A stretch of 64,000 bases of DNA from Candidatus Kaiserbacteria bacterium (GCA_031430855.1 JANPCG010000013.1:182893-246892), one strand, 5' to 3'. Counted from the stretch's first letter, positions 6,349 to 64,000 are shown. Made by a program: numbers and translations. The notes: generated from the letters alone by a model not told the origin.

Positions 6349-6942
6349 ATGAAATCAATTCTGGCGTTATTGGCAGACTTTGCGAATGGTATTTTTGCCG
6401 TGTTGCTGGCGTCGTACGTGTATCAGACAGAACCCCTCTGGTGGTATTTCATTGTTGGCATGGTTTTGGCAATGTTCCCTGACATTGATGCGGTGCCCGA
6501 ATTGATTGCTCGGGGTAAGGTGGCGGCAAGTGCATTGTATTCCAAAGATCATCGTACTTTCTTACATTATCCAATCTTGTCAGTTTCAATTGGCCTTATA
6601 GCCTGGTATGTATTTGGATTCTGGGGGTTAGTACTCTTGGTCGCGTTTACACTCCATTTAATAAATGATTTATATGGTACTGGCTGGGGTATTCCGTTGC
6701 TCTATCCGTTTACCCGTAAGCGCTATAAGTGTAATCCTGAGTTCTTTTTTAAACGCCGTACACTTCCTGCTGCGACGACTGTTTCAAGTTGGTCAGAGAG
6801 TGAATTACAACAAGCCATAAAGGTGAGTGGTAACGATAATTGGCTTGCTGATACCTATTTAACCCTAAATTGGATTTCGATTACCGAATATTCACTGTTT
6901 ATTATAGCGATAATAGGTATGACAGTCAGTTTGCTATACTAA
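6349..6942 (+). CDS. membrane-bound metal-dependent hydrolase (DUF457/YdjM-like)
   Basis: Multi-TM protein with the H..NDLYGTGWGIPLLYPF segment typical of DUF457. Confidence 0.5.
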   Translation: MKSILALLADFANGIFAVLLASYVYQTEPLWWYFIVGMVLAMFPDIDAVPELIARGKVAASALYSKDHRTFLHYPILSVSIGLIAWYVFGFWGLVLLVAFTLHLINDLYGTGWGIPLLYPFTRKRYKCNPEFFFKRRTLPAATTVSSWSESELQQAIKVSGNDNWLADTYLTLNWISITEYSLFIIAIIGMTVSLLY

Positions 6943-6946
6943 ACCC

Positions 6947-6991
6947 ATGAATACAGATAAGACATTTCCAGAGAGATTTTATTGGGGTGAG
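6947..6991 (+). pseudogene. relic duplicate of the GH1 gene 5' end
   Basis: ATGAATACAGATAAGACATTTCCAGAGAGATTTTATTGGGGTGA (MNTDKTFPERFYWG) versus the true start at 7203, ATGAATAAACAATTTCCACAAGGATTCTACTGGGGTGC (MNKQFPQGFYWG). Confidence 0.5.
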
Positions 6992-7080
6992 AAAAGGGAT
7001 GGGACCCTTTTCGCAAGAGGTTGCCAGCTATTTTGGAAAAATAGCGACAACCTGTACAGCTTCTGTAAGAAGAGAAAACT
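6985..7080 (-). repeat. structured repeat family 1, copy A (reverse orientation)
   Basis: Reverse complement aligns with copies at 31738-31899 and 24515-24595: CTTACAGAAGCTGTACAGGTTGTCG ... TTTTTCCAAAA.AGCTGGCAA ... CTTGCGA-[8-bp hairpin 6991-7012]-TCAC. Confidence 0.6.
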
Positions 7081-7202
7081 CTCGACCCGCTTCCGCAAGA
7101 CCGTGCCAGATATTTCTGAAGCGAAGCGAACAGAATTAACGACACGGTGTACCGTTTCTGTAAGAAACAGACATCAATCAAATTATTTGAAATACTGAAA
7201 CT

Positions 7203-8429
7203 ATGAATAAACAATTTCCACAAGGATTCTACTGGGGTGCAGCCACCGCCTCTTACCAAGTCGAAGGAGGCATCGAAAACACCGATTGGGCCGAAGCCGC
7301 TAGAGCGGGGCGAGTGCCGCAGTGTGGTCTCGCGTGTGATCACTATAATCGGTATGAAGCAGATTTTGATATTGCAAAAAGTCTTGGACATACTGCCCAC
7401 CGATTCTCGGTCGAGTGGGCGCGGATTGAACCTCTGCCCGGTCAATTCAATCAGGAAGCCATTGCTCATTACCGTAGCGTTCTGGCAGCATTAAAACTGC
7501 GCGGCATTACACCGTTTGTTACTTTGTGGCACTTCACGTTACCACTCTGGTTTTCAAAGGCGGGTGGTTTTGAATCGTCTGATGCGCCAGCGATTTTTTC
7601 GCGCTATGCGGCTTTTGTTGTTAATGAATTGGGTGATTATTGTAGTCATTTTGCAACCCTTAATGAGCCAAATGTCTATGCGACACACGGCTATCTCTAT
7701 GGTGCCTGGCCACCGTTCAAGCGGGGTAAGTTTTTATGGAAAAAAATCGGTAAAGAAGATGGCACTTCAGAAAAAACTCACGCTAATGCGCAGTTCATTA
7801 ATTTTTTTGCGTATATGAGAGTCGTGCGTAATTTGGCGAGAGCGCATAATAAGGCTTATGATGCTATTAAAGCGTTGCGACCAGAAGCTCAGATTAGTGT
7901 GGTGAAACACGTACATTATTTTAATGCTGATACCCACTTCTTAAATCGTTTCAAAGCTCGAGTAGCTGCTCAGTTGCAAACCTATAATTTTATGAATCGG
8001 GTGGCAGGCCAGTGTGATGAAATAGGTTTAAATTATTATCGCCATACAAAATTTGGTGATAATCAAAATTACCTTCATACCGATATGGAGTGGGACGTAT
8101 ACCCGAATGGTATTTTTGATGCCATCATGATGCTCCATCGCTACAGAAAACCAATATTTATTGCTGAAGCTGGTTTAGCTGATGAAAACGATGACCTCAG
8201 ACCAGATTACATTCGAGTACAAGTCATGGCTGTATATAGAGCAATCAAAGCTGGCGCTGACGTACGGGGGCATATGTACTGGTCACTGTTAGATAATTAC
8301 GAATGGGCACTTGGGTTCGGGAAGCGGTTTGGGCTTATCGCTATTAATTATGAGACTCAAGAGAGAACGGTGCGTCCTTCAGCATACGTGTATAAGCAAA
8401 TTTGTGAGAGCAATGCCGTAGTAGAATAA
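7203..8429 (+). CDS. glycoside hydrolase family 1 (beta-glucosidase-like)
   Basis: N-terminal FPQGFYWGAATASYQVEGG signature. TLNEP acid/base motif. I-A-E-A-G at the nucleophile position (ITENG-like). Confidence 0.85.
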   Translation: MNKQFPQGFYWGAATASYQVEGGIENTDWAEAARAGRVPQCGLACDHYNRYEADFDIAKSLGHTAHRFSVEWARIEPLPGQFNQEAIAHYRSVLAALKLRGITPFVTLWHFTLPLWFSKAGGFESSDAPAIFSRYAAFVVNELGDYCSHFATLNEPNVYATHGYLYGAWPPFKRGKFLWKKIGKEDGTSEKTHANAQFINFFAYMRVVRNLARAHNKAYDAIKALRPEAQISVVKHVHYFNADTHFLNRFKARVAAQLQTYNFMNRVAGQCDEIGLNYYRHTKFGDNQNYLHTDMEWDVYPNGIFDAIMMLHRYRKPIFIAEAGLADENDDLRPDYIRVQVMAVYRAIKAGADVRGHMYWSLLDNYEWALGFGKRFGLIAINYETQERTVRPSAYVYKQICESNAVVE

Positions 8430-15444: not shown

Positions 15445-16262
15445 CGCAGGTAGATGAGGTCTTTATTCAAACTGTCCGTGACTATCATCAAAATCATGGT
15501 CGTCATAGCTTGCCTTGGCGAAAGACTCATAATCCGTATCGCATTCTCGTCTCAGAGATTATGCTCCAGCAGACGCAGGTTGAACGAGTAATTCCCAAGT
15601 ACCAGGAATTTTTGAAGCGTTTTCCGACTGTCTCTACGCTCGCTGAGGGGACGCTTGGTGAAGTGCTTATTTTGTGGCAGGGTTTAGGCTATAATCGCCG
15701 CGCCAAGCACTTGTATGAGACGGCTCAAGCAATTGTGACCATACATAAAGGGGTGTGGCCTAAATCGTACGAGGCCATGCTCACTCTTCCGGGGGTTGGG
15801 CCATACACCGCAGGGGCAGTCTGTGCGTTTGCATTTAATACTCCTGTTCCCGTTGTCGAAACTAATATCCGGACGGTGTACATTCATCACTATTTTCCTT
15901 ATACAGAGGCTGTTACTGATACCATGCTTATGCCGATTATTGCTCGCACTCTAAATACGGACAATCCGCGGCTGTGGTACGCAGCGTTGATGGATTATGG
16001 AAGTCATCTTAAGGCGACGATTGGAAACAAAAGTCGACAGAGTCGTCACCATACAAAACAATCGTCCTTCAAAGGGAGTGATCGTTTTATTAGAGGGTCA
16101 ATACTACGACAGCTTGCTCATGTCAAAATTGGATTGACGAAACAAGGTCTCTGCAGTGTTCTTATGGGAACTGAGCGTGAACGTGTGGTATTACAGCTAG
16201 GGAAATTATTAAACGAAGGTTTGGTTTCTAAACAGGGAAGTCGTTACCGTCTCCCTATCTAG
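15441..16262 (+). CDS. HhH-GPD base-excision DNA glycosylase (MutY/Nth-like, lacking Fe-S cysteines)
   Basis: ILVSEIMLQQTQV, LWQGLGYNRRA and LPGVGPYTAGAV (HhH-GPD) motifs. No Cx6Cx2Cx5C cluster. Overlaps the photolyase stop by 4 bp. Confidence 0.7.
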   Translation: MTQVDEVFIQTVRDYHQNHGRHSLPWRKTHNPYRILVSEIMLQQTQVERVIPKYQEFLKRFPTVSTLAEGTLGEVLILWQGLGYNRRAKHLYETAQAIVTIHKGVWPKSYEAMLTLPGVGPYTAGAVCAFAFNTPVPVVETNIRTVYIHHYFPYTEAVTDTMLMPIIARTLNTDNPRLWYAALMDYGSHLKATIGNKSRQSRHHTKQSSFKGSDRFIRGSILRQLAHVKIGLTKQGLCSVLMGTERERVVLQLGKLLNEGLVSKQGSRYRLPI

Positions 16263-17454
16263 TGTCGTGTAAAAAGAGGCTCAAAAAGATACCAATAGTC
16301 ATAGTTGCAGCAAGAACCAAAAATGCCAGGTGAAACGGAAGGACGAGTAGTGCCGCGCTCCCTAAGAGTGCCCCGAGGACTGACCCTAAGGGACGCATAA
16401 GACGAAATAGACTAATGACCGCCGCGTCAGACCCGCTAACTTTTTTGAAGAAATAACTCTCGGTCGTCACCTCTACCATGCTGGCCCCAAATCGACTGAT
16501 AAACATGAGGGTCATCCATACCCAGGTTGCGGCGGCACCGACGGCGGTCACTCCGGCCATGGTGAGGGCTAGAACGAGAAAGCCTAGCGCCATCATTTCT
16601 TTTTCACCAATGTAATCATCAGCGAGGATGCCGACCGGATATTCAAAAATAACATACGCAAAGAGGCCGGCCGCTATAATCGTTCCGACCGCTGTCCAAG
16701 ATAAGCCAACTACACTTACCAGGTACAGAGGGATAAAGACGACGGTCCAGGTAAAAAATACCTGCAGCAGAAAATGCGTAGAGAGTACAATGCGTAAATC
16801 GTACTGTGTCCAGGCTGTTTTGAGCAGGGTCCGAACTTTAACCACGCTGTACGCTGGGTCATAAAAATTCCGAAAAATGGCAATAATGATGACAATAAAG
16901 ATTAATCCAACCATTTGAGCAAGCCAAAAAACCGGGATTAAATTCCCGCTCTCTCCCGCGAGGATACTGATAGAGAGGGGGGCCAAGAGGGCAGCGACGC
17001 TCATGAGGGCGAGGGCGAGACCTCGTTTATGTCCGGTACCCGCCTCGTTCTTGCCAATCAAGGTTTCCGAGAACACATCAATATGAAGATATAAAAGGGG
17101 ATTAATGACGAGGAAAAGAAGGAGTGCAGCAATCGTAATTGTCGGGCTAAAACCAGCACTAAAAACGGAGAGGGTGGCGAGAGAGGCGGCCATTAAAACG
17201 ATACTCATAGTCACGTTACCCCACACGCGAAGGAGGTACGGAATAGTCAAAAAAACCATAATTGATCCAGCTGCGCCAAGCGCGTAGAGGATGCCGACCG
17301 TACTCGGTTGTACAAATTGTTCAATAAATGTCGGTGCGCTGTATCCTACCAGTAGAGCCTGAAAGTTAAATACTACGGCGATGAGGTAGACAAACCAAAA
17401 GTGAATGGATACACACGGGGGATTGACGCAAATGGCACGCGGGCGAAAGAACAT
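16255..17454 (-). CDS. MFS-type transporter
   Basis: About 12 TM helices in a 6+6 layout typical of the major facilitator superfamily. Confidence 0.55.
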   Translation of the reverse strand: MFFRPRAICVNPPCVSIHFWFVYLIAVVFNFQALLVGYSAPTFIEQFVQPSTVGILYALGAAGSIMVFLTIPYLLRVWGNVTMSIVLMAASLATLSVFSAGFSPTITIAALLLFLVINPLLYLHIDVFSETLIGKNEAGTGHKRGLALALMSVAALLAPLSISILAGESGNLIPVFWLAQMVGLIFIVIIIAIFRNFYDPAYSVVKVRTLLKTAWTQYDLRIVLSTHFLLQVFFTWTVVFIPLYLVSVVGLSWTAVGTIIAAGLFAYVIFEYPVGILADDYIGEKEMMALGFLVLALTMAGVTAVGAAATWVWMTLMFISRFGASMVEVTTESYFFKKVSGSDAAVISLFRLMRPLGSVLGALLGSAALLVLPFHLAFLVLAATMTIGIFLSLFLHDTR

Positions 17455-17783
17455 GGTGTCTCTAGTGTACTAGATTTTCCCCTCCCTAGAGCGTGGTCTT
17501 TGTGGAGAGTTGTTGACTTACCACAAAAAATCACCAAAGCAAAAGCACCCCTAAGGGTGCTTTTGCCAGTTGTAGAAACTGTTCCATAAAAAGTATCAGA
17601 TGCTAGGCATGAGAAGTGACCAAATGTCACTTCGCAAGACTCATTGAGTTAGTTTGTGAGTATGGACGAAACAGAATAACCAATGAGTTTAAGAGTGAGT
17701 TGGCGAGGCGTACTAAACGTACGATGAGGCGGCTTGCGATAGTTCCAACAACGCAAATGATGTCTTTTTGGGACAGCTGTCTG

Positions 17784-19805
17784 TTACAAACCTATCAATA
17801 CAGGGATAACCATCGGTGATTTCTGTGTCTTCTGCATCAAAAACTGACTCACAATATCAGTCAATTCGTCTTTTACGTAATCAAGATCAAGCGGGTTCAT
17901 GCGCTCTGTGTATTTCTCGATGGTCTTTTTAATGAGGACACGAGCTTCAGATAGGAGCTGTTGATTCTCGCGGAGGTACACAAAACCTCGAGAAATAATG
18001 TCGGGGGATTTGCGTAACTTTCCGGTTTTAGCATTCACGGTAGCGATAATCACAAACATGCCATCCTGTGAGAGGCTCATACGATCACGTAATACTACCT
18101 CTTGGCGGTTACCAACGGTAAAACCATCAACGACTACCATCTCAGTGGGGATTTTTACCTTGTGACGGATAATTTCGGTACCATTTTTGATATCGATAAT
18201 GGTACCGTTGTCAGGTACAACGATATTTTCTTTTGGAAAACCGTTCTCGACAGCCGCGAAATAGTGGCTCTTAAGGTGATAGTGGTGTCCGTGAACTGGA
18301 ACCAAAAACTTTGGCTTAACCGTTTGGTGAACCCACACGAGGTCTCCGGCGTTCCCGTGTCCTGATGAGTGGACGTGTGAACCCTTATAGTTGATAACCT
18401 TAACATTGCGACGGTAGATATTATCTTTCAATTTTTGGACAGCAATTTCGTTCCCAGGAATGACAGATGAGGAGAGAACGATCGTGTCACGCTCATTGAG
18501 GGTAATTTGTTTGTGCTTATCAGTTGCCATGCGCATCAGAGCTGCAAATTCTTCACCCTGGGCTCCGGTTGAGAGAATAACTATTTTATCAGCCGGGTAG
18601 TTTCCAATATCATTTGCACTAATAAAAGTGGTAGGCTTTACTTCAAGGAGTTTTGCTTGAATGGCAATCTCGATGTTTACTTTAATACTGCGACCCTCCA
18701 TAACAACCTTCTTGCCTAAGGCTTCGCAGATGTTAATAATCGCGATGAGTCGGTCAAACTGTGAGGCAAAGGTTCCTACAATAATTCGTCCGCTTGTGTT
18801 ACGAATAATTTCTTCGAGAGTATCGAACACTTTTGTTTCTGAAGCAGAAAAACCTTCACGGTCGGCGTTGGTTGAGTCACATAACAATACGAGATTATTA
18901 TGCTTTCCAACTTCTTCCCAGGCTTCTTTTTCTTCAACTACAACCTGTCCATCAACGTTAACGAGTTTAATGTCACCGGTAACTACCACGTCACCGTGCT
19001 TCGTTTCAATCGCCAGACCCATAGCGTCAGGAATTGAGTGAGTCACCGGGAAGGTGCGTACTTTGGTGCTCCCAACCGTAAAGCTTTCGCCCTCTTTGAC
19101 GATGTGCATATCAACGGGGTCAATGTGCGGGAATTCCTCTTGTCGTTTGAGGATCATTAAGGACGTGAGGTACTGTGTATAGATTGGTGGATTACCAATT
19201 CGTTCCATAATAAAGGGGATTCCTCCGATGTGGTCGAGGTGGCCGTGAGTAATAATCAAGGCACGAATCTTGTCTTTGCGCTCTTCTAGGTATTGGGTAT
19301 TTGGGAGAATGTACTGGATTCCAGGCGCATTGCTTTCTTCAGATACAAATTGGAAGCCGGCATCGATAACAAGAATGTCGTCTTTTGTTTCGACAATAAT
19401 CATATTTCGCCCAATTTCTTCAACTCCTGATACGGGAATAACACGAACGGTGTCTTCATCAGTAATGAGTGGTAGAACGGGATTTTTTTCATCTGTAATC
19501 GTCATGCGGTGACTGAGGGCCGGGCTTGTCATCGGACGACGACTGTTGCCGCCACTACGACGACGTTTGCCGTCGCGGCCGGACCGTTTAGTCGGGGTGC
19601 CAGTAGCAGAACGTTCAGTTCGCGCTGCTGGAGCTGAGGTAGTTGCAGGAGCGGCTGTGGTGCTACTTAGAGGACGTGGTCCGCGGTGGTGCGTGCGATT
19701 AAATGGCCGTCTTGCTCCACCAGAACGAGGATTGCTCGAAGCTGGTCGGCTCCCTGGGGTCCGCGGTGTGAGTGGGTTAGTTGGTTGTGAATTTTGTGGT
19801 GTCAT
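17784..19805 (-). CDS. rnj: ribonuclease J (MBL/beta-CASP) with ~100-aa Arg/Pro/Ser/Thr-rich N-terminal extension
   Basis: HGHLDHIGG metallo-beta-lactamase motif, beta-CASP region and C-terminal domain. The N-terminus is low-complexity and basic and is encoded by a GC-rich stretch. Confidence 0.85.
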   Translation of the reverse strand: MTPQNSQPTNPLTPRTPGSRPASSNPRSGGARRPFNRTHHRGPRPLSSTTAAPATTSAPAARTERSATGTPTKRSGRDGKRRRSGGNSRRPMTSPALSHRMTITDEKNPVLPLITDEDTVRVIPVSGVEEIGRNMIIVETKDDILVIDAGFQFVSEESNAPGIQYILPNTQYLEERKDKIRALIITHGHLDHIGGIPFIMERIGNPPIYTQYLTSLMILKRQEEFPHIDPVDMHIVKEGESFTVGSTKVRTFPVTHSIPDAMGLAIETKHGDVVVTGDIKLVNVDGQVVVEEKEAWEEVGKHNNLVLLCDSTNADREGFSASETKVFDTLEEIIRNTSGRIIVGTFASQFDRLIAIINICEALGKKVVMEGRSIKVNIEIAIQAKLLEVKPTTFISANDIGNYPADKIVILSTGAQGEEFAALMRMATDKHKQITLNERDTIVLSSSVIPGNEIAVQKLKDNIYRRNVKVINYKGSHVHSSGHGNAGDLVWVHQTVKPKFLVPVHGHHYHLKSHYFAAVENGFPKENIVVPDNGTIIDIKNGTEIIRHKVKIPTEMVVVDGFTVGNRQEVVLRDRMSLSQDGMFVIIATVNAKTGKLRKSPDIISRGFVYLRENQQLLSEARVLIKKTIEKYTERMNPLDLDYVKDELTDIVSQFLMQKTQKSPMVIPVLIGL

Positions 19806-21905: not shown

Positions 21906-22249
21906 GTGACTGACATCGTAGCACAAAGTGCTAAAGTTGTAAAATGAGCCACAGAGCGTAGCGACAATGGCGAATTTTCGCGAGTGTTTTTTATTCCTTA
22001 TAAAAACATCCGCACCTCACCAACCTGATTATCTAATCAACCAGCCCTAGTAGCGACAATGGCGAATTTTTCTCTACGTTGGTGTACTCTCCTTGTTTTG
22101 TTTAGTTGTATCCTTGGATTTAACGTTCCAGCGATTCTCCCGGGGAAGGTCGTATCGGGAACTAAGTAAAATCATGCTCGCTACCGCTTGCTGTTTTACT
22201 TAATAAAAACATCCGCGCCCTGCCAACGTGATTATGTATTGTTACTTTC

Positions 22250-24418: not shown

Positions 24419-24514
24419 CCAAAGCCTCTGAATATAACCCACTGCTTTGTCGTGTGTTTATATCTGTCAGTCGCGGTAGGAATCTGCCGCTTCCTCCAGA
24501 ATCTAGTCGCCTGT

Positions 24515-24595
24515 CTTAACAGAAGCTGTACACCTTTTGGAAATCAAAGATTTCTCAAAAGGTCTTGCGACAGTTTCCCAAACTGTCTCACTCGC
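24515..24595 (+). repeat. structured repeat family 1, copy C (in the groEL 3' UTR)
   Basis: CTTAACAGAAGCTGTACA ... AAGGTCTTGCGA-[GACAGTTT ccc AAACTGTC]-TCACTCGC. Lies between the groEL stop and the terminator at 24641. Confidence 0.6.
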
Positions 24596-31477: not shown

Positions 31478-31612
31478 TGCGGAGAGGGGATTCGAAACTT
31501 ACAGTTTCAGTACCCCAATTGGATACTTTAGTTCGCTTCACTTCTAAAGTCTCTCAATCGGGCTTCGAATCCCCACATGAGTGACATTGAGTCACTCATT
31601 CACCCTCCGCTC
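31478..31612 (+). repeat. tRNA-end-flanked structured repeat family 2, copy Z
   Basis: Left end GCGGAGAGGGGATTCGAA and right end (inverted) CACCCTCCGC both mimic the tRNA-Ser 3' acceptor/T-arm. Internal ACTTACAGTTTCAGTACCCC, GGGCTTCGAATCCCCAC and the hairpin ATGAGTGACATTGAGTCACTCAT. Confidence 0.55.
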
Positions 31613-31737: not shown

Positions 31738-31899
31738 ACTTCTTACAGAAGCTGTAAATTCTACGAATTCTGTACAGGTTGTCGTTACTGCGTAACAGGC
31801 AACCTCCTGAAACAATATATTATACTGTTTCAGCCTATCACTCTTTTTCCAAAAGAGCTGGCAAGGTCTTGCGAAAGTCTCCCAGACTTTCTCACACTC
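31738..31899 (+). repeat. structured repeat family 1, copy B (longest)
   Basis: CTTCTTACAGAAGCTGTA ... CAGGTTGTCG ... [50-nt insert with perfect hairpin CTGAAACA/TGTTTCAG] ... TTTTTCCAAAAGAGCTGGCAAGGTCTTGCGA-[GAAAGTCT ccc AGACTTTC]-TCACACTC. Confidence 0.6.
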
Positions 31900-38261: not shown

Positions 38262-38792
38262 CTATGCCGAGGCTTTAGCAATCCTTGCTTGTTCTTTGGG
38301 GGTAGCCAGGTCCGTAGACTTGGTAAGGTCGAGGAAGATTGTCCCTTCGATGTGGTCATATTCGTGGAGACATACACGAGCAGCGAGATCGTCGAGGGTT
38401 TCCTCTTCCTGATGGCCATTCCGATTGGTAAACGAGATGGTTAGCGACTTGGGACGTTCAACTCTCCCAAAGATGTCCGGGATACTCAGACAACTTTCCC
38501 AAAGCGTTTCCGTCTCGTCCGAGTACCCAACGATGGTCGGGTTGATAATGGCCTTCGGATCCATCACGAGAGCGTTGGGGTAGCGAGGAGTCGGCCTCGA
38601 AGAGATGATGAAAAGCCGGAGCGGCTGATACACCTGCGGCGCTGCGATGCCGAGACCTTCGGCATCTTGACACGTATACATCATGTCATCGATAAGAGTC
38701 TGGATGTCAGGATCGTGGATGTCTTCGACTTCCTTCGCTTTTCCGCGCAGGATAGGGTGACCAAGCTGGCTGATTTGGAGTAAAGTGGGCAT
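38262..38792 (-). CDS. def: peptide deformylase (copy 1, in a GC-rich patch)
   Basis: GLGIAAPQV, ESCLSIP and HEYDHIEG motifs. Local GC about 55% versus about 45% for the window. Confidence 0.85.
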   Translation of the reverse strand: MPTLLQISQLGHPILRGKAKEVEDIHDPDIQTLIDDMMYTCQDAEGLGIAAPQVYQPLRLFIISSRPTPRYPNALVMDPKAIINPTIVGYSDETETLWESCLSIPDIFGRVERPKSLTISFTNRNGHQEEETLDDLAARVCLHEYDHIEGTIFLDLTKSTDLATPKEQARIAKASA

Positions 38793-41912: not shown

Positions 41913-42043
41913 CTCCCGGGGCAGGAATCGAAGCTTAACGCTTCAGTACATCCTGTCGCTATTTTGTTCGCAAGGTCCAAAATAAGCAGGCAGGGTCTTC
42001 GAATCCTGACACGAGTGACGTTTAGTCACTCGTTTCCGGGGAG
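41913..42043 (+). repeat. tRNA-end-flanked structured repeat family 2, copy X
   Basis: CTCCCGGGGCAGGAATCGAAGCTTAACGCTTCAGTACATCC ... GCAAGGTCC ... GGGTCTTCGAATCCTGACACGAGTGACGTTTAGTCACTCGTTTCCGGGGAG, followed by the terminator-like hairpin CCACACTTGCGTGTGG. Confidence 0.55.
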
Positions 42044-42583
42044 TATATAAAAGTAAAGACCACACTTGCGTGTGGCCTAAACTTTTATATGCTCCAATTG
42101 TTCTGGTCGATTAGAACTTTTTATATGCACAATGATAGCAGGGTGATGGTGCCTTTTTTAAATGTAACACGTCCCAGTAACTAACCGCCAACACAAGGCT
42201 CGCCTAGCGAGTATTCTTTTTCGCATTCTATCTCTACCTGTGATACTTTCCAGATATACATAGCAGAAATAGCGACACAAAGTATAAGAGCGAAGTACAG
42301 AAACTTTTTCATTAAAGAAATTGTACCATGTCTAATTGCGTACATATGATGTCAATGAAATATCAATGTGGTGTATGTGTTCCGTAAGCTGGACGGGTCC
42401 AGAACTCTTGGTAAATAGATTTAGACAAGCAAATTGGTCACAAATTCAAAGAGAATTGGATTGGAGTGGGATTTTGTATTTTTACCAAAGGCAAGTACTT
42501 CAGAACTTGGGTGTATAAAAAAGAAAAACCGCCGCTTCGTTATGAGACGAAGCGTTGGCTTTTCGTCCCACCGAAGTGGCGGT

Positions 42584-43153
42584 TTACACGTTCACCCAAG
42601 GAGCGGTTGCAAGTATCCACGCCTGTCGCAAATCATCGACAGGCATCAGGTCGCGTAACTTACCCACCGGGTAAAGAGGGCGGTCGTTGGGGTCTTCTGA
42701 TAGAACGATGTGCGCCTCCCCGATATCGACGATGAACGACTTTTCTAATACGTCAAAGCGTTTGATATTCGCCCCGACTACTTGTGGGCTGAACTCGTCC
42801 CACTTCTGGCCTGAGAAGTTGGACATCAGTGGTCTGTGAATGTTGTATTGTTCGGGATGTGCCCCTAGACACTGTCCGTTGACTTTCAACCAGCAAGCGG
42901 CTCCCCATAGACAGAGGATGAGCCATTCTCCAGACTGGCTTTCATCAGCTTCGAGGTTGAAGCCGACGAAGCCAGGACCACCCTGTCCATACGTTCCACA
43001 GGAGGGAGAAAACTCGATAACTTTTCGGCCAATGAGGCTGCCGAAGTCGATATTTCTCCTGAGTGATACATCATTATCGCCGTATGCTCGAATGATCTTG
43101 CTTTCTTTTTTCACGATCGCCTCCGTTTCAAAAGTGTTAAATCCAAAAAACAC
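42584..43153 (-). CDS. hypothetical protein
   Basis: No known family. Followed by a strong terminator (CGCTTCGT..ACGAAGCG nested in AAACCGCC..GGCGGTTT, then T-run). Confidence 0.4.
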   Translation of the reverse strand: MFFGFNTFETEAIVKKESKIIRAYGDNDVSLRRNIDFGSLIGRKVIEFSPSCGTYGQGGPGFVGFNLEADESQSGEWLILCLWGAACWLKVNGQCLGAHPEQYNIHRPLMSNFSGQKWDEFSPQVVGANIKRFDVLEKSFIVDIGEAHIVLSEDPNDRPLYPVGKLRDLMPVDDLRQAWILATAPWVNV

Positions 43154-43362: not shown

Positions 43363-43492
43363 TTTACTCGCTTCCCGGGCAGGATTCGAAGCTTACAGCT
43401 TCGGTACACCTTGCGGATTTTCTTTCGCAGGCTCAAGAAAAATCTCGCAAGGTCTTCGAATCCTGACGAACGTGACATTTAGTCACGTTCTC
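43363..43492 (+). repeat. tRNA-end-flanked structured repeat family 2, copy Y
   Basis: The left end CCCGGGCAGGATTCGAA is identical to 17 nt of the adjacent tRNA-Asn 3' region. Internal GCTTACAGCTTCGGTACACC, CGCAAGGTCTTCGAATCCTGAC and hairpin GAACGTGACATTTAGTCACGTTC. The right end CTCCCGGGGAGCC is the inverted tRNA 3' end. Confidence 0.55.
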
Positions 43493-43502
43493 CCGGGGAG
43501 CC

Positions 43503-43533
43503 AAAAAATCAAAAACCACACTTGCGTGTGGTT
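43503..43533 (-). terminator. rho-independent terminator of tRNA-Asn
   Basis: CCACAC-ttgc-GTGTGG followed (on the minus strand) by TTTTTGATTTTTT. Confidence 0.6.
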
Positions 43534-43547
43534 AAAGATTTTTACGG

Positions 43548-43619
43548 CTCCCCGGGCAGGATTCGAACCTGCGACCAATCGATTAACAGTCGACTGCTCT
43601 ACCGCTGAGCTACCGAGGA
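43548..43619 (-). tRNA. tRNA-Asn (anticodon GUU)
   Basis: Reverse complement TCCTCGG-TA-GCTC-AGCGGTA-GAGC-A-GTCGA-cTGTTAa-TCGAT-TGGTC-GCAGG-TTCGAAT-CCTGC-CCGGGGA-G. Canonical 72-nt cloverleaf, no encoded CCA. Confidence 0.85.
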
Positions 43620-43897
43620 AGGTGGCTACTACTTTTACCTCATCTACACTTTAGTTTCGAATGACTCGATGCGCAGTCGACTTCGTCGACCTTCGTACCG
43701 AAGCTGTCCACTCATTCGTCTCTTTCATTCGCTTCGCTCTGAAAGATATTGAATGAGTCTTGAGAAGTGACATTGAGTCACTTCTCACTAAGCTACCTAA
43801 GGAAGGTGGCTACTTACTTACCAGAAGTTGGTAAGTTGTTGTATTGTACAGAAAAATCGCTAAAACTCAAATTTTCTAAGGGGAAGTCAGTTAGGTA

Positions 43898-47308: not shown

Positions 47309-47839
47309 TTACGCTGCTTCTTTAATTTCCTTATGCTTCTTGAGATCGTCTTTGTGCCAGACTTTCTCGGCTCGGTCGGTAAAGAGAATGCCGTCGAGGT
47401 GGTCGTACTCATGTTGGATAATTTGGGCCAAGAGAGTCCCCGCTCCACGTTCGTAGACCTTACCGTTCTCGTCGTAGGCACGTAACGTGACATTAGTTGA
47501 ACGCTTCACCAGTCCATAGTATTCAGGAATTGAGAGACAGCCTTCACCTACCTCGTGGGTTTTTTTGGAAAACTTAACAATCTTTGGGTTGATAGCTATG
47601 AGGGTGGGGAGGGCGTCACGGTCTTTACTCTGGTCTTCGATAATAAAAATGCGTTTCGAAACGCCAATTTGAGGAGCGGCAATAGCAACTGCGGTAAAGC
47701 CATCAACTTTGTATGACTTTAGCGCGCTCCGCATATCCTTGAGGATTTTTTTCACTGTCCCATCAGAAAACTCCGCTGGAGTGATTTCCTCGGCAATGGC
47801 ATGTAGGGCGGGATGGTTTGAGGGGACGAGAGTCGTCAT
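47309..47839 (-). CDS. def: peptide deformylase (copy 2, def-fmt arrangement)
   Basis: GFTAVAIAAPQIG, GEGCLSIP and QHEYDHLDG motifs. Start at MTTLVP; the ORF extends to 47890. Confidence 0.85.
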   Translation of the reverse strand: MTTLVPSNHPALHAIAEEITPAEFSDGTVKKILKDMRSALKSYKVDGFTAVAIAAPQIGVSKRIFIIEDQSKDRDALPTLIAINPKIVKFSKKTHEVGEGCLSIPEYYGLVKRSTNVTLRAYDENGKVYERGAGTLLAQIIQHEYDHLDGILFTDRAEKVWHKDDLKKHKEIKEAA

Positions 47840-47934
47840 AGGGTGGTTGTATGGGGTACTATAGCGTATTTGGTTATAAAAATGAAGCAAAACAACAACC
47901 GCAAGGTTGTATGTTTTGCTTCGTTCCCGTTGCT

Positions 47935-48035
47935 GTCATTCCTTACAGGAACAGTACACCCTTTGGATAGTTTCTTCAAAACTATCTCAAATGGTTTTGA
48001 AGAGTGACATTTAGTCACTCTTCAACCCAGGCAGA
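47935..48035 (+). repeat. structured repeat family 2, variant copy V
   Basis: CCTTACAGGAACAGTACACC ... GAAGAGTGACATTTAGTCACTCTTC-AACCCAGGCAG, preceded by CCGCAAGGTTG. Confidence 0.45.
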
Positions 48036-62770: not shown

Positions 62771-64000
62771 TATGAACATATTTACTAGAACCGGTTCAAA
62801 AATAGCGCAAATGTTTGCTATTTTAACGGTCTTCACCTTACTTGTCGGTGTTTTACCAATGAGTGCGCAGGCCGTCGTAATTGATGGTCCGCCCCCAACT
62901 ATTATTGATGTTTGTTCAAATATTGAATTATCTCAGCTCGAAACACCGGAAGGAATGACAAATAATGATGGTATTTGTACCCTTATCGAGGCTCCTATCG
63001 TTGATATTTGCGCCAATCTTGAAGGTGATCAAACCGTTGTTCCGGAAGGACGAGTGCTTGAAGGAGACAATCAGTGTGTCCTGCGAGGTGATGAAATTGA
63101 GGAACCGGCAATCTGCGCCGATGATGAAGCTGTTAATTTTGAACAAGAAGGTAAGTGTCGTTATGAAGAAATCGACGATACGCCAACTCCCCCTCGAATA
63201 ATTAATACTTGTCTTGTACCTAGTACGCTCGGAGATGAGAGTGAGTTCGTAATGGGCGATTCTGGTGAGAAAACGGTAGCAGAAATGCTTGCTCTGCACG
63301 GTTATGGAGCAATTGATACTGATGCTGATCAAATTAACTACCAGGTTTGGAATTTAGCTAATGATACTGCGGTGTCAGTTACTTTTACGATGCGTGTCCT
63401 TGGGAAGCGCGCGGGGAATACTCAAATTGTCGGGTACTACAAAGCGGGTGATGACCTGACTTTTACAACAGCCTTGACCCAAAGTCTTGATACTGATGGC
63501 GAAGAGTCTGTTTCGGTTACCATCCCGGCTGAGTACGCTAATAGTTTTGGGTTTGCCTTGCAATCAGCAGATAAGACCTGGTTTTCAGAGAAATCACTCA
63601 ATAGCGACGAAGCAGACCATGTCGCAGTCTACAATCCATCTGCGAATACCTACCTCCTCGCGTTTGAAGACTTTAATAATCTTGGTGATGGTGACTACAA
63701 CGACATTGTGATTGAAATTGATGAAGTTACCTGTAACCGAACACCACAGGTAATTAACTCATGTTTAATTCCTTCTACCTTAAAAGATAAGGGCGAATTT
63801 ATTATTGAAAGTGATTCGGGTGAAAAGACGGTAGCTGAAATGCTCGCTGATCATGGTTATGCTTCAGTCGATATTGCAGCAGACCAACGAAATTACCAGG
63901 TCTGGAATTTAGCTGATGCAGACGCTGATTCGGTCACATTCACGATGCGTGTCCTTGGGAAGCGTGCGGGGAATACCCAAATTGTCGGATACTACAAAGC
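62771..64000 (+). CDS. secreted tandem-repeat protein (DUF4114-like domains), 3'-partial
   Basis: Open frame to the window end, missing from the ORF track because it has no stop. Signal peptide. Two copies of an ~190-aa repeat containing NYQVWNLA, TFTMRVLGKRAGNTQIVGYYKAGDD and FEDFNNLGDGDYNDIVIEI (the GDxDYND signature of DUF4114). Confidence 0.55.

Follow-up and report, generated by a model that had tools for sequence, protein, structure and literature searches.

Structure of the GH1 locus

In the window, i.e., the whole 64-kb stretch of DNA analyzed herein (from a Patescibacteria MAG; G+C content of 45%), an intact gene encoding a 408-aa protein of the GH1 (beta-glucosidase) family (Pfam PF00232) occupies positions 7203-8429 on the plus strand. 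It is preceded by a gene for a YdjM-family membrane protein (Pfam PF04307; 6349-6942, plus strand), which provided a synteny anchor. The identical GH1 protein was found in 11 contigs from several assemblies, and its relatives were encoded by Kaiserbacteria and Paceibacteria MAGs. At the junction of the two genes lie, in this order, a decayed copy of the GH1 start (hereafter U), two copies of a small structured element, and the segment carrying the functional start of GH1 (hereafter D).

An earlier note on this DNA had claimed that the first 44 nt of the GH1 gene reappear, in diverged form, at 6947. Local alignment of the GH1 start (7203-7247) with 6900-7200 gave a score of 19, which exceeded those of all 834 background segments of the window (maximum 15.5), and the duplication of the GH1 5' end was thus confirmed. 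The 44-nt match was genuine but too short; when the flanks were included, 6930-6989 (TTTGCTATACTAAACCC ATG...TATTGGGGTG) aligned with 7186-7239 (TTTGAAATACTGAAACT ATG...TACTGGGGTG) at a score of 26; the reverse-complement control reached 9, and no shuffle exceeded 13. As for the concern that the 44 nt might match another gene, they were found to match the GH1 start itself. U (6930-6989, plus strand) contains an extended -10-like box TGCTATACT, the last codons of the YdjM gene with its stop at 6940-6942, and, from an ATG at 6947, a stretch of 13 codons resembling those of GH1 that terminates in TGGGG(TG). In D (7186-7239, plus strand), a -10-like box TGAAATACT has kept the same spacing and is followed by the functional ATG of GH1 at 7203 and by codons 1-12. 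The two segments are direct copies that have diverged to about 70-75% identity; their differences are spread over all bases, and their Phe and Tyr codons differ at the third position only. The duplication also takes in approximately 17 nt 5' of each ATG, including the YdjM stop-codon region in U. Besides the -10-like box, the duplicated segment includes the start codon of GH1 and the initial 11-13 codons, down to the TGGGG of the conserved FYWG motif. The duplicated stretch before the insertion point amounts to about 55-60 nt at this locus.

Given the short length of the match, a coincidental similarity or an assembly artefact might be suspected. This explanation is virtually negligible, because the alignment score surpassed the entire background set, the arrangement recurs at dozens of loci, and the same arrangement was present with few SNPs in four independent assemblies of the species (L001-L004), so that an artefact of assembly can be dismissed.

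Two copies of a structured element between U and D

The earlier note had interpreted the intervening DNA as a single insert of ~210 bp reaching to position 7200. Instead, a full-length copy (copy A, 6988-7072, plus strand) and a 5'-truncated copy (copy B, ~7073-7168, plus strand) of the same element were found to be arranged head-to-tail, followed by a 17-nt junction, and the bases 7186-7202 belong to the duplication rather than to an insert. The element is approximately 85-95 nt in length and consists of TGAGA, hairpin 1, (T)CGCAAGA, hairpin 2, TGTAC, and hairpin 3. In copy A, TGAGA is followed by hairpin 1 (6993-7010), TCGCAAGA (7011-7018), hairpin 2 (7019-7052), TGTAC (7053-7057), and hairpin 3 (7060-7072); a covariance model of the element matched 6983-7077 with 92.9 bits, and the fold had a z-score of -3.5. 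In copy B, in which hairpin 1 is degenerate, CGCAAGA (7094-7100), hairpin 2 (7101-7147), TGTAC (7148-7152), and hairpin 3 (7154-7168) were recognizable, and the covariance model matched 7098-7167 with 56.4 bits over model positions 31-97 only; this copy was also detected as a direct repeat. The palindromes that had been noted in this part of the sequence are present, and they belong to copy B: GTTTC TGTAA GAAAC (7154-7168) forms its hairpin 3, and the other palindrome lies in the inner portion of its hairpin 2. The junction AGACATCAATCAAATTA (7169-7185, plus strand), delimited by reading the sequence, shows a weak similarity to 6920-6929 and could be either a tail of the element or a further decayed part of the duplication.

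The secondary structure was well supported by covariation. The base of hairpin 2 is GGTTG/CAACC in copy A and CCGTG/CACGG in copy B, i.e., a compensatory change, and RNAalifold analysis of 10 copies revealed compensatory changes in 22 of 30 pairs. Among 124 distinct copies, 95.1% of the cells were paired and double changes occurred in all 30 pairs, a level reached by none of 500 shuffles and far above that of a slid control. G-U pairs outnumbered A-C mismatches 1.8-fold (69 vs. 38), an excess that mildly favors the strand sense to the target gene; the folded form may be either RNA or single-stranded DNA. No Rfam family corresponding to the element was identified when the whole window and three sub-regions were searched at both the gathering threshold and E ≤ 10, which returned only tRNAs and noise. 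The element has no coding capacity of its own. Terminal inverted repeats were absent, the 5' end TGAGAAAG... showing no match to the reverse complement of the 3' end ...CTTCTTACAGAAG, and the repeat search detected no inverted repeat within the element. A reading of hairpin 1 as an anticodon arm was rejected, since its loop sizes and sequences were too variable.

Filled and empty sites in related genomes

To test the insertion reading, 78 GH1 loci from GTDB species representatives, together with contigs of closer relatives, were compared. The element was located directly 5' of GH1 in L013, L015, L019, L030, L038, L039, L054, L058, L059, and L088, and also in L222, thus in at least 11 other genomes. 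Each of the filled loci was composed of a relic GH1 start ending in TGGGG(TG), the element, and then the real start after 0-25 nt. The earlier note had proposed a search for empty sites, and orthologous YdjM-GH1 loci without the segment were indeed found (L032, L036, L073, L064, L055, and L049), in which the YdjM stop is followed after 3-10 nt by the GH1 ATG. In particular, the filled L019 and the empty L073 were 95-99% identical in DNA sequence over 13 kb, and a 450-nt insert lay exactly at the site in L019. L038 (filled) and L036 (empty) were likewise sisters in the GH1 tree, where filled loci were distributed patchily over at least six clades and most GH1 relatives were devoid of the element.

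The insertion point could be defined by these comparisons. In L030, the target continues as GGGG|ATCGG, just as in the empty L036, indicating that the element starts at TGAGA and that the duplication ends at GGGG. In the window, the element directly follows TGGGG, in the codons for Trp and Gly, which are numbers 10-11 in GH1 and 12-13 in the relic fragment. U-D identity ranged from 54/54 in L088 and 42/43 in L030 down to approximately 75% in the window, which points to events of differing age, and the upstream spacer of each lineage was common to its own U and D. Furthermore, two successive relic starts were present in L059, L222, and L054, showing that the GH1 site has been struck repeatedly.

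The insertion at the GH1 start proposed in the earlier note is accordingly supported by the empty sites, the closely related filled and empty alleles, and the recurring duplications, but it does not represent a one-off event: it reflects a recurrent, locus-specific behavior of a widespread element. We consider it likely that 6930-7239 is the insertion footprint of a small, non-autonomous, structured mobile element within the first codons of GH1. Since no mobilizing enzyme, terminal inverted repeats, or excision product was found, the mobility is deduced from comparative data only. The GH1 gene itself remained intact after the insertion because the downstream copy carries its own start.

Other copies and other targets

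Eleven copies of the element, making up approximately 1.5% of the window, were detected with the covariance model: besides GH1, they are located 5' of tRNA-Asn and tRNA-Ser, 3' of both tRNAs, between convergent genes, and in one 3' region. The copy directly 5' of tRNA-Asn (tRNA at 43619-43546, minus strand) lies at 43686-43792 on the minus strand (50.6 bits), and is preceded at ~43788-43822 by a relic of the upstream region of tRNA-Asn plus its first 17 nt (flank score of 22.5 vs. 9 for the control); its architecture is that seen at GH1. Two adjacent copies occur 5' of tRNA-Ser (tRNA at 31717-31630, minus strand) at 31752-31899 on the minus strand (54.4 and 25.5 bits), before which a possible weak relic of the tRNA-Ser 5' end GGAGAGGTGGCAGAGTG was noticed, with a flank score of 13.5 that was not significant. 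No flank duplication was detected for the copy between convergent genes (24508-24595, minus strand, 72.9 bits) or for the copy in the 3' region of a 221-aa gene, 5' of a terminator-like hairpin and def (47934-48029, minus strand, 68.9 bits). A divergent copy (17605-17697, plus strand) was located in the intergenic region between 16255-17454 and 17784-19805 (32.9 bits, fold z-score of -5.3). The remaining copies are tRNA-like variants. The one 3' of tRNA-Asn (43384-43464, minus strand) begins with a copy, in inverted orientation, of the 3' acceptor strand of the tRNA, after which hairpin 1, CAGGATTCGAAGA, hairpin 2, TGTAC, hairpin 3, and TTCGAATCCTGCCCGGGAAGC follow, and similar variants were detected by the covariance model at 41926-42014 and 31490-31575 on the minus strand. 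The three variants scored 48.5, 35.9, and 46.1 bits, and folds with z-scores of -6.0 and -4.2 were recorded among them. A Pfam search of approximately 55 ORFs in the window, about 20 of which had no Pfam match, identified no transposase, integrase/recombinase, reverse transcriptase, HUH, or Cas domain, which supports a non-autonomous nature of the element.

Beyond the window, the element was present in hundreds of copies in Patescibacteria metagenomes. A single metagenome scan with an element-specific pattern yielded at least 120 matches listed, among which the 5' flank was repeated downstream in 27 of the 79 testable copies (4 of 79 in the reverse-complement control). The protein targets among the matches listed were msrA, entered after GGCFW|G, the RNase HII gene, entered after IGIDEAG|, the genes for two P-loop proteins and for a protein beginning with MKIGFIGQG, and GH1; the RNA targets among them were tRNA-Cys, tRNA-Ser, tRNA-Asn, another tRNA, and a 65-nt segment beside the 3' end of a 5S rRNA gene. 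At least 10 different targets were thus recognized, and the duplications at other family copies that the earlier note had proposed to look for were found at tRNA-Asn in the window and, elsewhere, at GH1, msrA, RNase HII, P-loop genes, and several tRNAs. Insertions were always co-oriented with the target gene. At the junction ...G|TGAGA, the base 5' of the element was always G, and the base after the site in the intact copy was free. The duplication was variable in length, about 25-75 nt. In protein genes, the downstream copy began directly after hairpin 3; in the tRNA cases, 30-60 extra bases, at times with a fourth hairpin, lay between the element and the downstream copy. In L224, the element is followed by a remnant (17/20 nt) of the part of the tRNA that lies beyond the insertion point, and this does not fit a simple target-site duplication. 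Approximately two thirds of the copies had no detectable flank duplication, and hence the duplication is either not obligatory or quick to decay. Viral contigs gave no sign of phage carriage: a 15-mer had 51 matches, none of which was confirmed by the covariance model, and a 21-mer had none.

The placement of a gene-matching segment in sense orientation directly 5' of a conserved structured RNA, with a perfect match in L088, also recalls a guide-RNA system, in which the upstream fragment would act as the guide and the element as the scaffold, directing a nuclease or repressor to the GH1 start according to an IscB, Cas9, or TldR logic. Such a function can hardly be assumed for a fragment that decays freely (75% identity in the window, and independently in L162 and L213), that extends over 25-75 nt including a promoter box and the stop codon of the neighboring gene, and that is missing from most copies. 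No effector gene for omega RNA, TIGR, or CRISPR systems was found in the window by Pfam, and we regard the guide reading as highly improbable.

Upstream reading frame and expression of GH1

The 83-codon ORF described in the earlier note does exist. It runs from the relic GH1 ATG through both element copies (6947-7198, plus strand) and stops 4 nt before the GH1 ATG; its product begins with MNTDKTFPERFYWG, and GH1 begins with MNKQFPQGFYWG. At 10 of the 11 GH1 loci, the frame of the relic ATG was open through the element and ended between -8 and +4 nt relative to the GH1 ATG, and 1-6 stops were invariably present in the other two frames. In copies elsewhere, this frame was open in 3 of 18 cases, and about 20% of frames were open. 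Among other protein targets, 8 of 12 had it open. The conserved core was read in two different frames (FARPC... or FRKTLP...), indicating that the constraint is on openness and not on the peptide.

Most genes in the window have a TANNNT box, often with TG before it, 12-15 nt 5' of the ATG, and few have a Shine-Dalgarno sequence. Judging from the position of this motif, transcripts in this genome may be predominantly leaderless. A simple sigma-70 scan located no canonical -35/-10 pair placed to drive either start, and speaks neither for nor against the -10 reading. The open upstream frame ending at the GH1 start suggests translational coupling (termination-reinitiation): ribosomes would start at the relic ATG, translate the element, terminate at the GH1 ATG, and re-initiate there, by which the displaced GH1 start codon, lacking a Shine-Dalgarno sequence, would be kept in use. 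The frame would be kept open because ribosomes from the relic ATG re-initiate at the GH1 ATG, and their read-through from the relic ATG would be expected since the genome appears to be largely leaderless and poor in Shine-Dalgarno sequences.

The open frame, together with the strong conservation of the structure, the constant position before GH1 in several clades, and the fact that GH1-linked copies are mutually nearest relatives (the nearest neighbor was also GH1-linked in 10 of 13), could be expected of a conserved cis-regulatory GH1 leader, i.e., a structured RNA with a leader peptide, attenuator- or riboswitch-like, inherited vertically with many losses. Vertical descent is, however, excluded by the 97% identity of copy A across genomes whose GH1 proteins are 60% identical. 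The distribution is difficult to reconcile with a leader: 11 copies occur in 64 kb, the family occupies sites at tRNAs and unrelated genes as well as 3' regions and the space between convergent genes, its presence on the GH1 tree is patchy, most GH1 relatives lack it, and filled and empty alleles are found in genomes 95-99% identical. Nor would a leader explain the relic start codon, promoter box, and N-terminus upstream, and no Rfam family matches it. A riboswitch or gene-specific leader was thus rejected as a description of the family, and as an account of this locus it is very unlikely, although a secondary use of the element as a regulator may occur.

Spread, age layers, and possible routes of insertion

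Copy A was 97.6% identical to the GH1-linked copy in L222 and 96.5% identical to that in L038, and at most 67% identical to the other copies in the window. Considering that the GH1 proteins of L222 and L038 are only ~60% identical to that of the window, this similarity points to horizontal spread. The near-identical tract shared by the window, L038, and L222 was the element alone, the adjoining fragment bases being different; this pattern indicates that the element was exchanged as a discrete unit and that the same locus was preferred. Comparison of these sequences therefore indicates that the element moves horizontally as such a unit. The window itself is two-layered, with an older U/D duplication and copy B and a younger copy A. 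Since U and D are old (~75% identity) and copy A is young, copy A cannot have given rise to this duplication, which probably dates from the event that brought copy B.

As to how the footprint arises, the duplication would be made by the insertion process itself, either by widely staggered cuts followed by fill-in, or by integration of a small unit of gene start plus element through a single crossover, from which excision would be possible through the direct repeats. Selection would then keep only those events that regenerate the promoter, the start codon, and the N-terminus. Neither the staggered insertion nor the single crossover accounts for every locus.

The single-crossover route is suggested by the periodic unit of L088 and by the imported-looking U or D of L013 and L019. 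An alternative to a transposition-type target duplication is recombinational homing, in which the mobile unit would be the element together with a gene-start copy, spreading between genomes by homologous recombination in the highly conserved stretch encoding FP.GFYWG. The substrate could be a small circle, or a tandem multimer excised via the direct repeats, that integrates in the Campbell manner, or linear DNA that is taken up, and U (or D) of the window would then derive from a different GH1 lineage. A number of observations count in favor of homing. L088 contains a perfect 148-nt periodic unit, within which all three contigs end, and which may reflect a genuine tandem array or, in part, the assembler. 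Tandem or nested units of fragment plus element were found in L059, L222, and L054. In L019, U and the element were 93% like those of L030, and U differed from its own start at five positions, in a genome otherwise 95-99% identical to that of the empty L073. In L013, D and the spacer resembled L088, and U resembled P0003 and P0004; in both L013 and L019, U was nearer to GH1 starts of other genomes than to its own D, which fits import by recombination better than target duplication in situ. In the window, U encodes MNTDKTFP, which is similar to the N-terminal sequences MFKDKKFP and MAIEKKFP of the nearest relatives without the element, and the third-position differences in the Phe and Tyr codons of U and D, as well as the clustering of element copies by target locus, are also consistent with homing. 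Moreover, no element-encoded enzyme would be needed, and none was found in the window.

On the other hand, the first insertion at a new target would be impossible by homing, yet at least 10 targets are occupied, and the restriction of the high-identity tract in the window, L038, and L222 to the element is the opposite of what a flank-mediated process would predict. Further points against it are that RecA acts poorly on homology arms of only 20-40 nt with 80-90% identity, and that double-stranded circles of ~150 bp are strained. Taken together, recombinational homing is a possible, albeit somewhat unlikely, explanation of the locus.

A more speculative extension, which we consider doubtful at present, is that the element represents a novel class of mobile elements in bacteria, that it possibly originated from a tRNA-like RNA, and that its insertion is coupled to transcription initiation or proceeds via RNA. 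The duplicated segment starts at about the -10 box or the transcription start and reaches a G-run that lies 20-60 nt farther downstream; it would be equivalent to the DNA opened in the open complex or the R-loop, or else to the 5' portion of the target transcript. A unit of 5' transcript fragment plus element might home to the same gene elsewhere without any element-encoded protein, and the regeneration of the gene start, combined with translational coupling, would render the insert harmless.

Implications

Patescibacteria have tiny genomes with few recognizable mobile elements. The present element inserts within the first codons of conserved genes and in tRNA genes, which survive owing to the duplication of the gene start, an insertion signature that was not described for bacterial repeats in the searchable literature and that implies either integration by a very long stagger or an enzyme-free homing route. 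It also affects genome annotation through spurious small ORFs such as the 83-aa "gene", N-terminally extended proteins (P0021-like), and contig breaks. In addition, it may illustrate how expression of a leaderless gene is maintained once the gene no longer lies at the 5' end of its mRNA, and its locus-specific horizontal spread could serve as a marker of DNA exchange among uncultivated lineages.

Comparison with known systems

Rickettsia palindromic elements (RPE) are structured repeats of 105-146 bp that occur in conserved protein and RNA genes as well as in intergenic regions, with the reading frame kept open (PMC2229807). The element described herein resembles them as a small structured non-coding repeat in protein and RNA genes with an open frame. 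It differs in that RPE are fused in frame within one continuous gene, whereas here the ORF through the element ends at 7198 and GH1 begins anew in a different frame at 7203, and in that RPE have terminal inverted repeats, which are absent here. The fold here consists of three hairpins with conserved linkers. YPAL/RU-2 of Yersinia, which lack TA ends, generate variable target duplications of 3-26 bp (PMC2229807). With these and with bacterial MITEs, the element shares a non-autonomous, multi-copy nature, a size below 200 bp, and empty and filled sites between relatives. Its duplications, in contrast, are 25-75 nt long and span the promoter-proximal region up to the insertion point. The orientation of the insertions matches that of the target gene, and the two ends of the element are not connected by inverted repeats, be they terminal or internal. 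Of the typical MITE features, the element thus displays the small, non-coding, multi-copy character with empty and filled sites, and neither terminal inverted repeats nor a short fixed duplication of 2-10 bp.

Unusually long variable direct repeats, from tens to hundreds of bp, are known for IS1634/IS1549, which are autonomous elements of 1.5-2 kb with a DDE transposase and inverted ends. The long variable duplication is alike, but the present element is ~90 nt in length, and no DDE transposase or inverted ends were found in the window. Integrative phages and islands in tRNA or protein genes restore the split gene and leave a displaced fragment; they measure kilobases, carry an integrase, and nearly always use the 3' end. 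Here, too, the gene is regenerated from a copy beside the insert, the fragment remains as a direct repeat, and tRNA genes are favored, but the insert is ~90 nt, the 5' end is restored, and the interval between U and D is ~200 nt without an independent gene or recombinase. Target-primed reverse transcription of SINEs/LINEs and homing introns produce variable target duplications, 5' truncation, and locus-specific spread. The variable duplications, the 5'-truncated copy B, the tRNA-like relatives, and the spread to the same conserved site are reminiscent of these systems; the differences are that the window yielded neither a reverse transcriptase nor a homing endonuclease and that the element is not spliced. 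A SINE-like element mobilized in trans would require a reverse transcriptase in the genome and an RNA intermediate; the 69 vs. 38 ratio of G-U to A-C favors the sense strand.

Three further candidates were rejected. As for introns, group II introns are reported to be absent from Patescibacteria, and the group I introns in Patescibacteria tRNAs are a different feature from this element (PMC13011429); a group I or II intron was dismissed given the lack of an Rfam match even at E ≤ 10 and the finding that the downstream copy is a full gene start and not a continuing exon. An IS200/IS605-derived element would agree with the hairpins and the insertion after G but not with the long flank duplications, and no Y1 transposase or TnpB Pfam match was present in the window. 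A TR/VR pair of a diversity-generating retroelement was discarded, as the U-D differences are not confined to adenines and no reverse transcriptase match was found in the window. In searches of open-access papers for repeats of Patescibacteria, for MITEs, for long target duplications, and for mobile elements resembling tRNAs, no description of this element family was found. Small non-autonomous bacterial repeats are the closest described kind; the element is set apart from RPE, YPAL/RU-2, IS1634/IS1549, and integrative islands by the features that define each of them, and there is a real possibility that its mechanism is also new.

GH1 loci on other contigs

In a more distant relative (L093, 6001-6130), the annotated protein of the beta-glucosidase family GH1 (P0021) comprises 446 aa, and its coding region includes a relic start (MSPETEERKFPDGFYY) which together with approximately 50 nt is fused in-frame to the real GH1 start (MTERVKGAKIFPENFYWG). 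These approximately 50 nt represent a partial repeat of the real GH1 N-terminus, and the element itself is absent from this region upstream of GH1. The fused start could be a scar left by an excised or deleted insert.

Seven independent short-read contigs (L005-L008 and L088-L090) terminate within the fragment/element region 5' of GH1, and assemblies are systematically broken by the element. The element also produces spurious small ORF calls, with lengths of 83, 55, 41, and 38 aa.

Copies at other loci

An arrangement more complex than that at GH1 was observed at another locus (L188, 12476-12700), where an element copy adjoins, in opposite orientation, a gene for 5S rRNA. This copy is flanked by a duplication of 65 nt (59/65 identical) and is followed by a sense-oriented fragment similar to the 5S 3' end.

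The 5' flank CGTCTT(T/C)GCGAG, immediately preceding the TGAGA end of the element, is common to many of the copies from metagenomes (loci L153, L155, L164, L171, L173-175, L190, L192, L214, L215, L218, and L221), as are ...GGCAATCCACG... motifs close by. A contig carries several of them; such copies may form an array or belong to a longer composite repeat that includes the element.

Within the window, an element copy is located 44 nt 5' of the listed ORF of a peptide deformylase (47309-47890, minus strand), a paralogue of which (38262-38792, minus strand) is encoded within 10 kb. Two other direct repeats are unrelated to the element family, namely 63258-63445 and 63813-64000 (188 nt, 79% identity, 555-nt spacing) and 21991-22035 and 22194-22238 (45 nt, 78% identity, 203-nt spacing).

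Gene starts in the window

Throughout the window, most genes carry a (TG)nTANNNT box 12-15 nt 5' of the ATG, and a Shine-Dalgarno-like motif was recognized in only about 9 of the 57 gene starts. Judging from the sequence, mRNAs in this genome appear to be mainly leaderless.

tRNA-associated copies

A direct repeat with a unit of 1.46 kb (41962-42095 versus 43419-43551, 74% identity) contains the 3' flank of tRNA-Asn, its terminator, and a tRNA-like element. The 189-aa ORF between the two copies (42584-43153, minus strand) gave no Pfam match. Near 42096-42150 there may be a decayed remnant of tRNA-Asn. The region has the appearance of a segmental duplication, or of serial integration at the tRNA.

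Three tRNA-like variants of the element (43384-43505, 41926-42048, and 31490-31600, all on the minus strand) are situated 3' of tRNA-Asn or tRNA-Ser. Their 5' part consists of the tRNA 3' acceptor strand in inverted copy and then hairpin 1, after which a split T-loop, with TTCGAA on either side, encloses hairpins 2 and 3 and is followed by sequence copied directly from the adjoining tRNA, namely the 3' half of its T-stem and its 3' acceptor strand. The predicted folds are highly stable (z = -6.0 and -4.2). The element family may have originated from a tRNA-like RNA.
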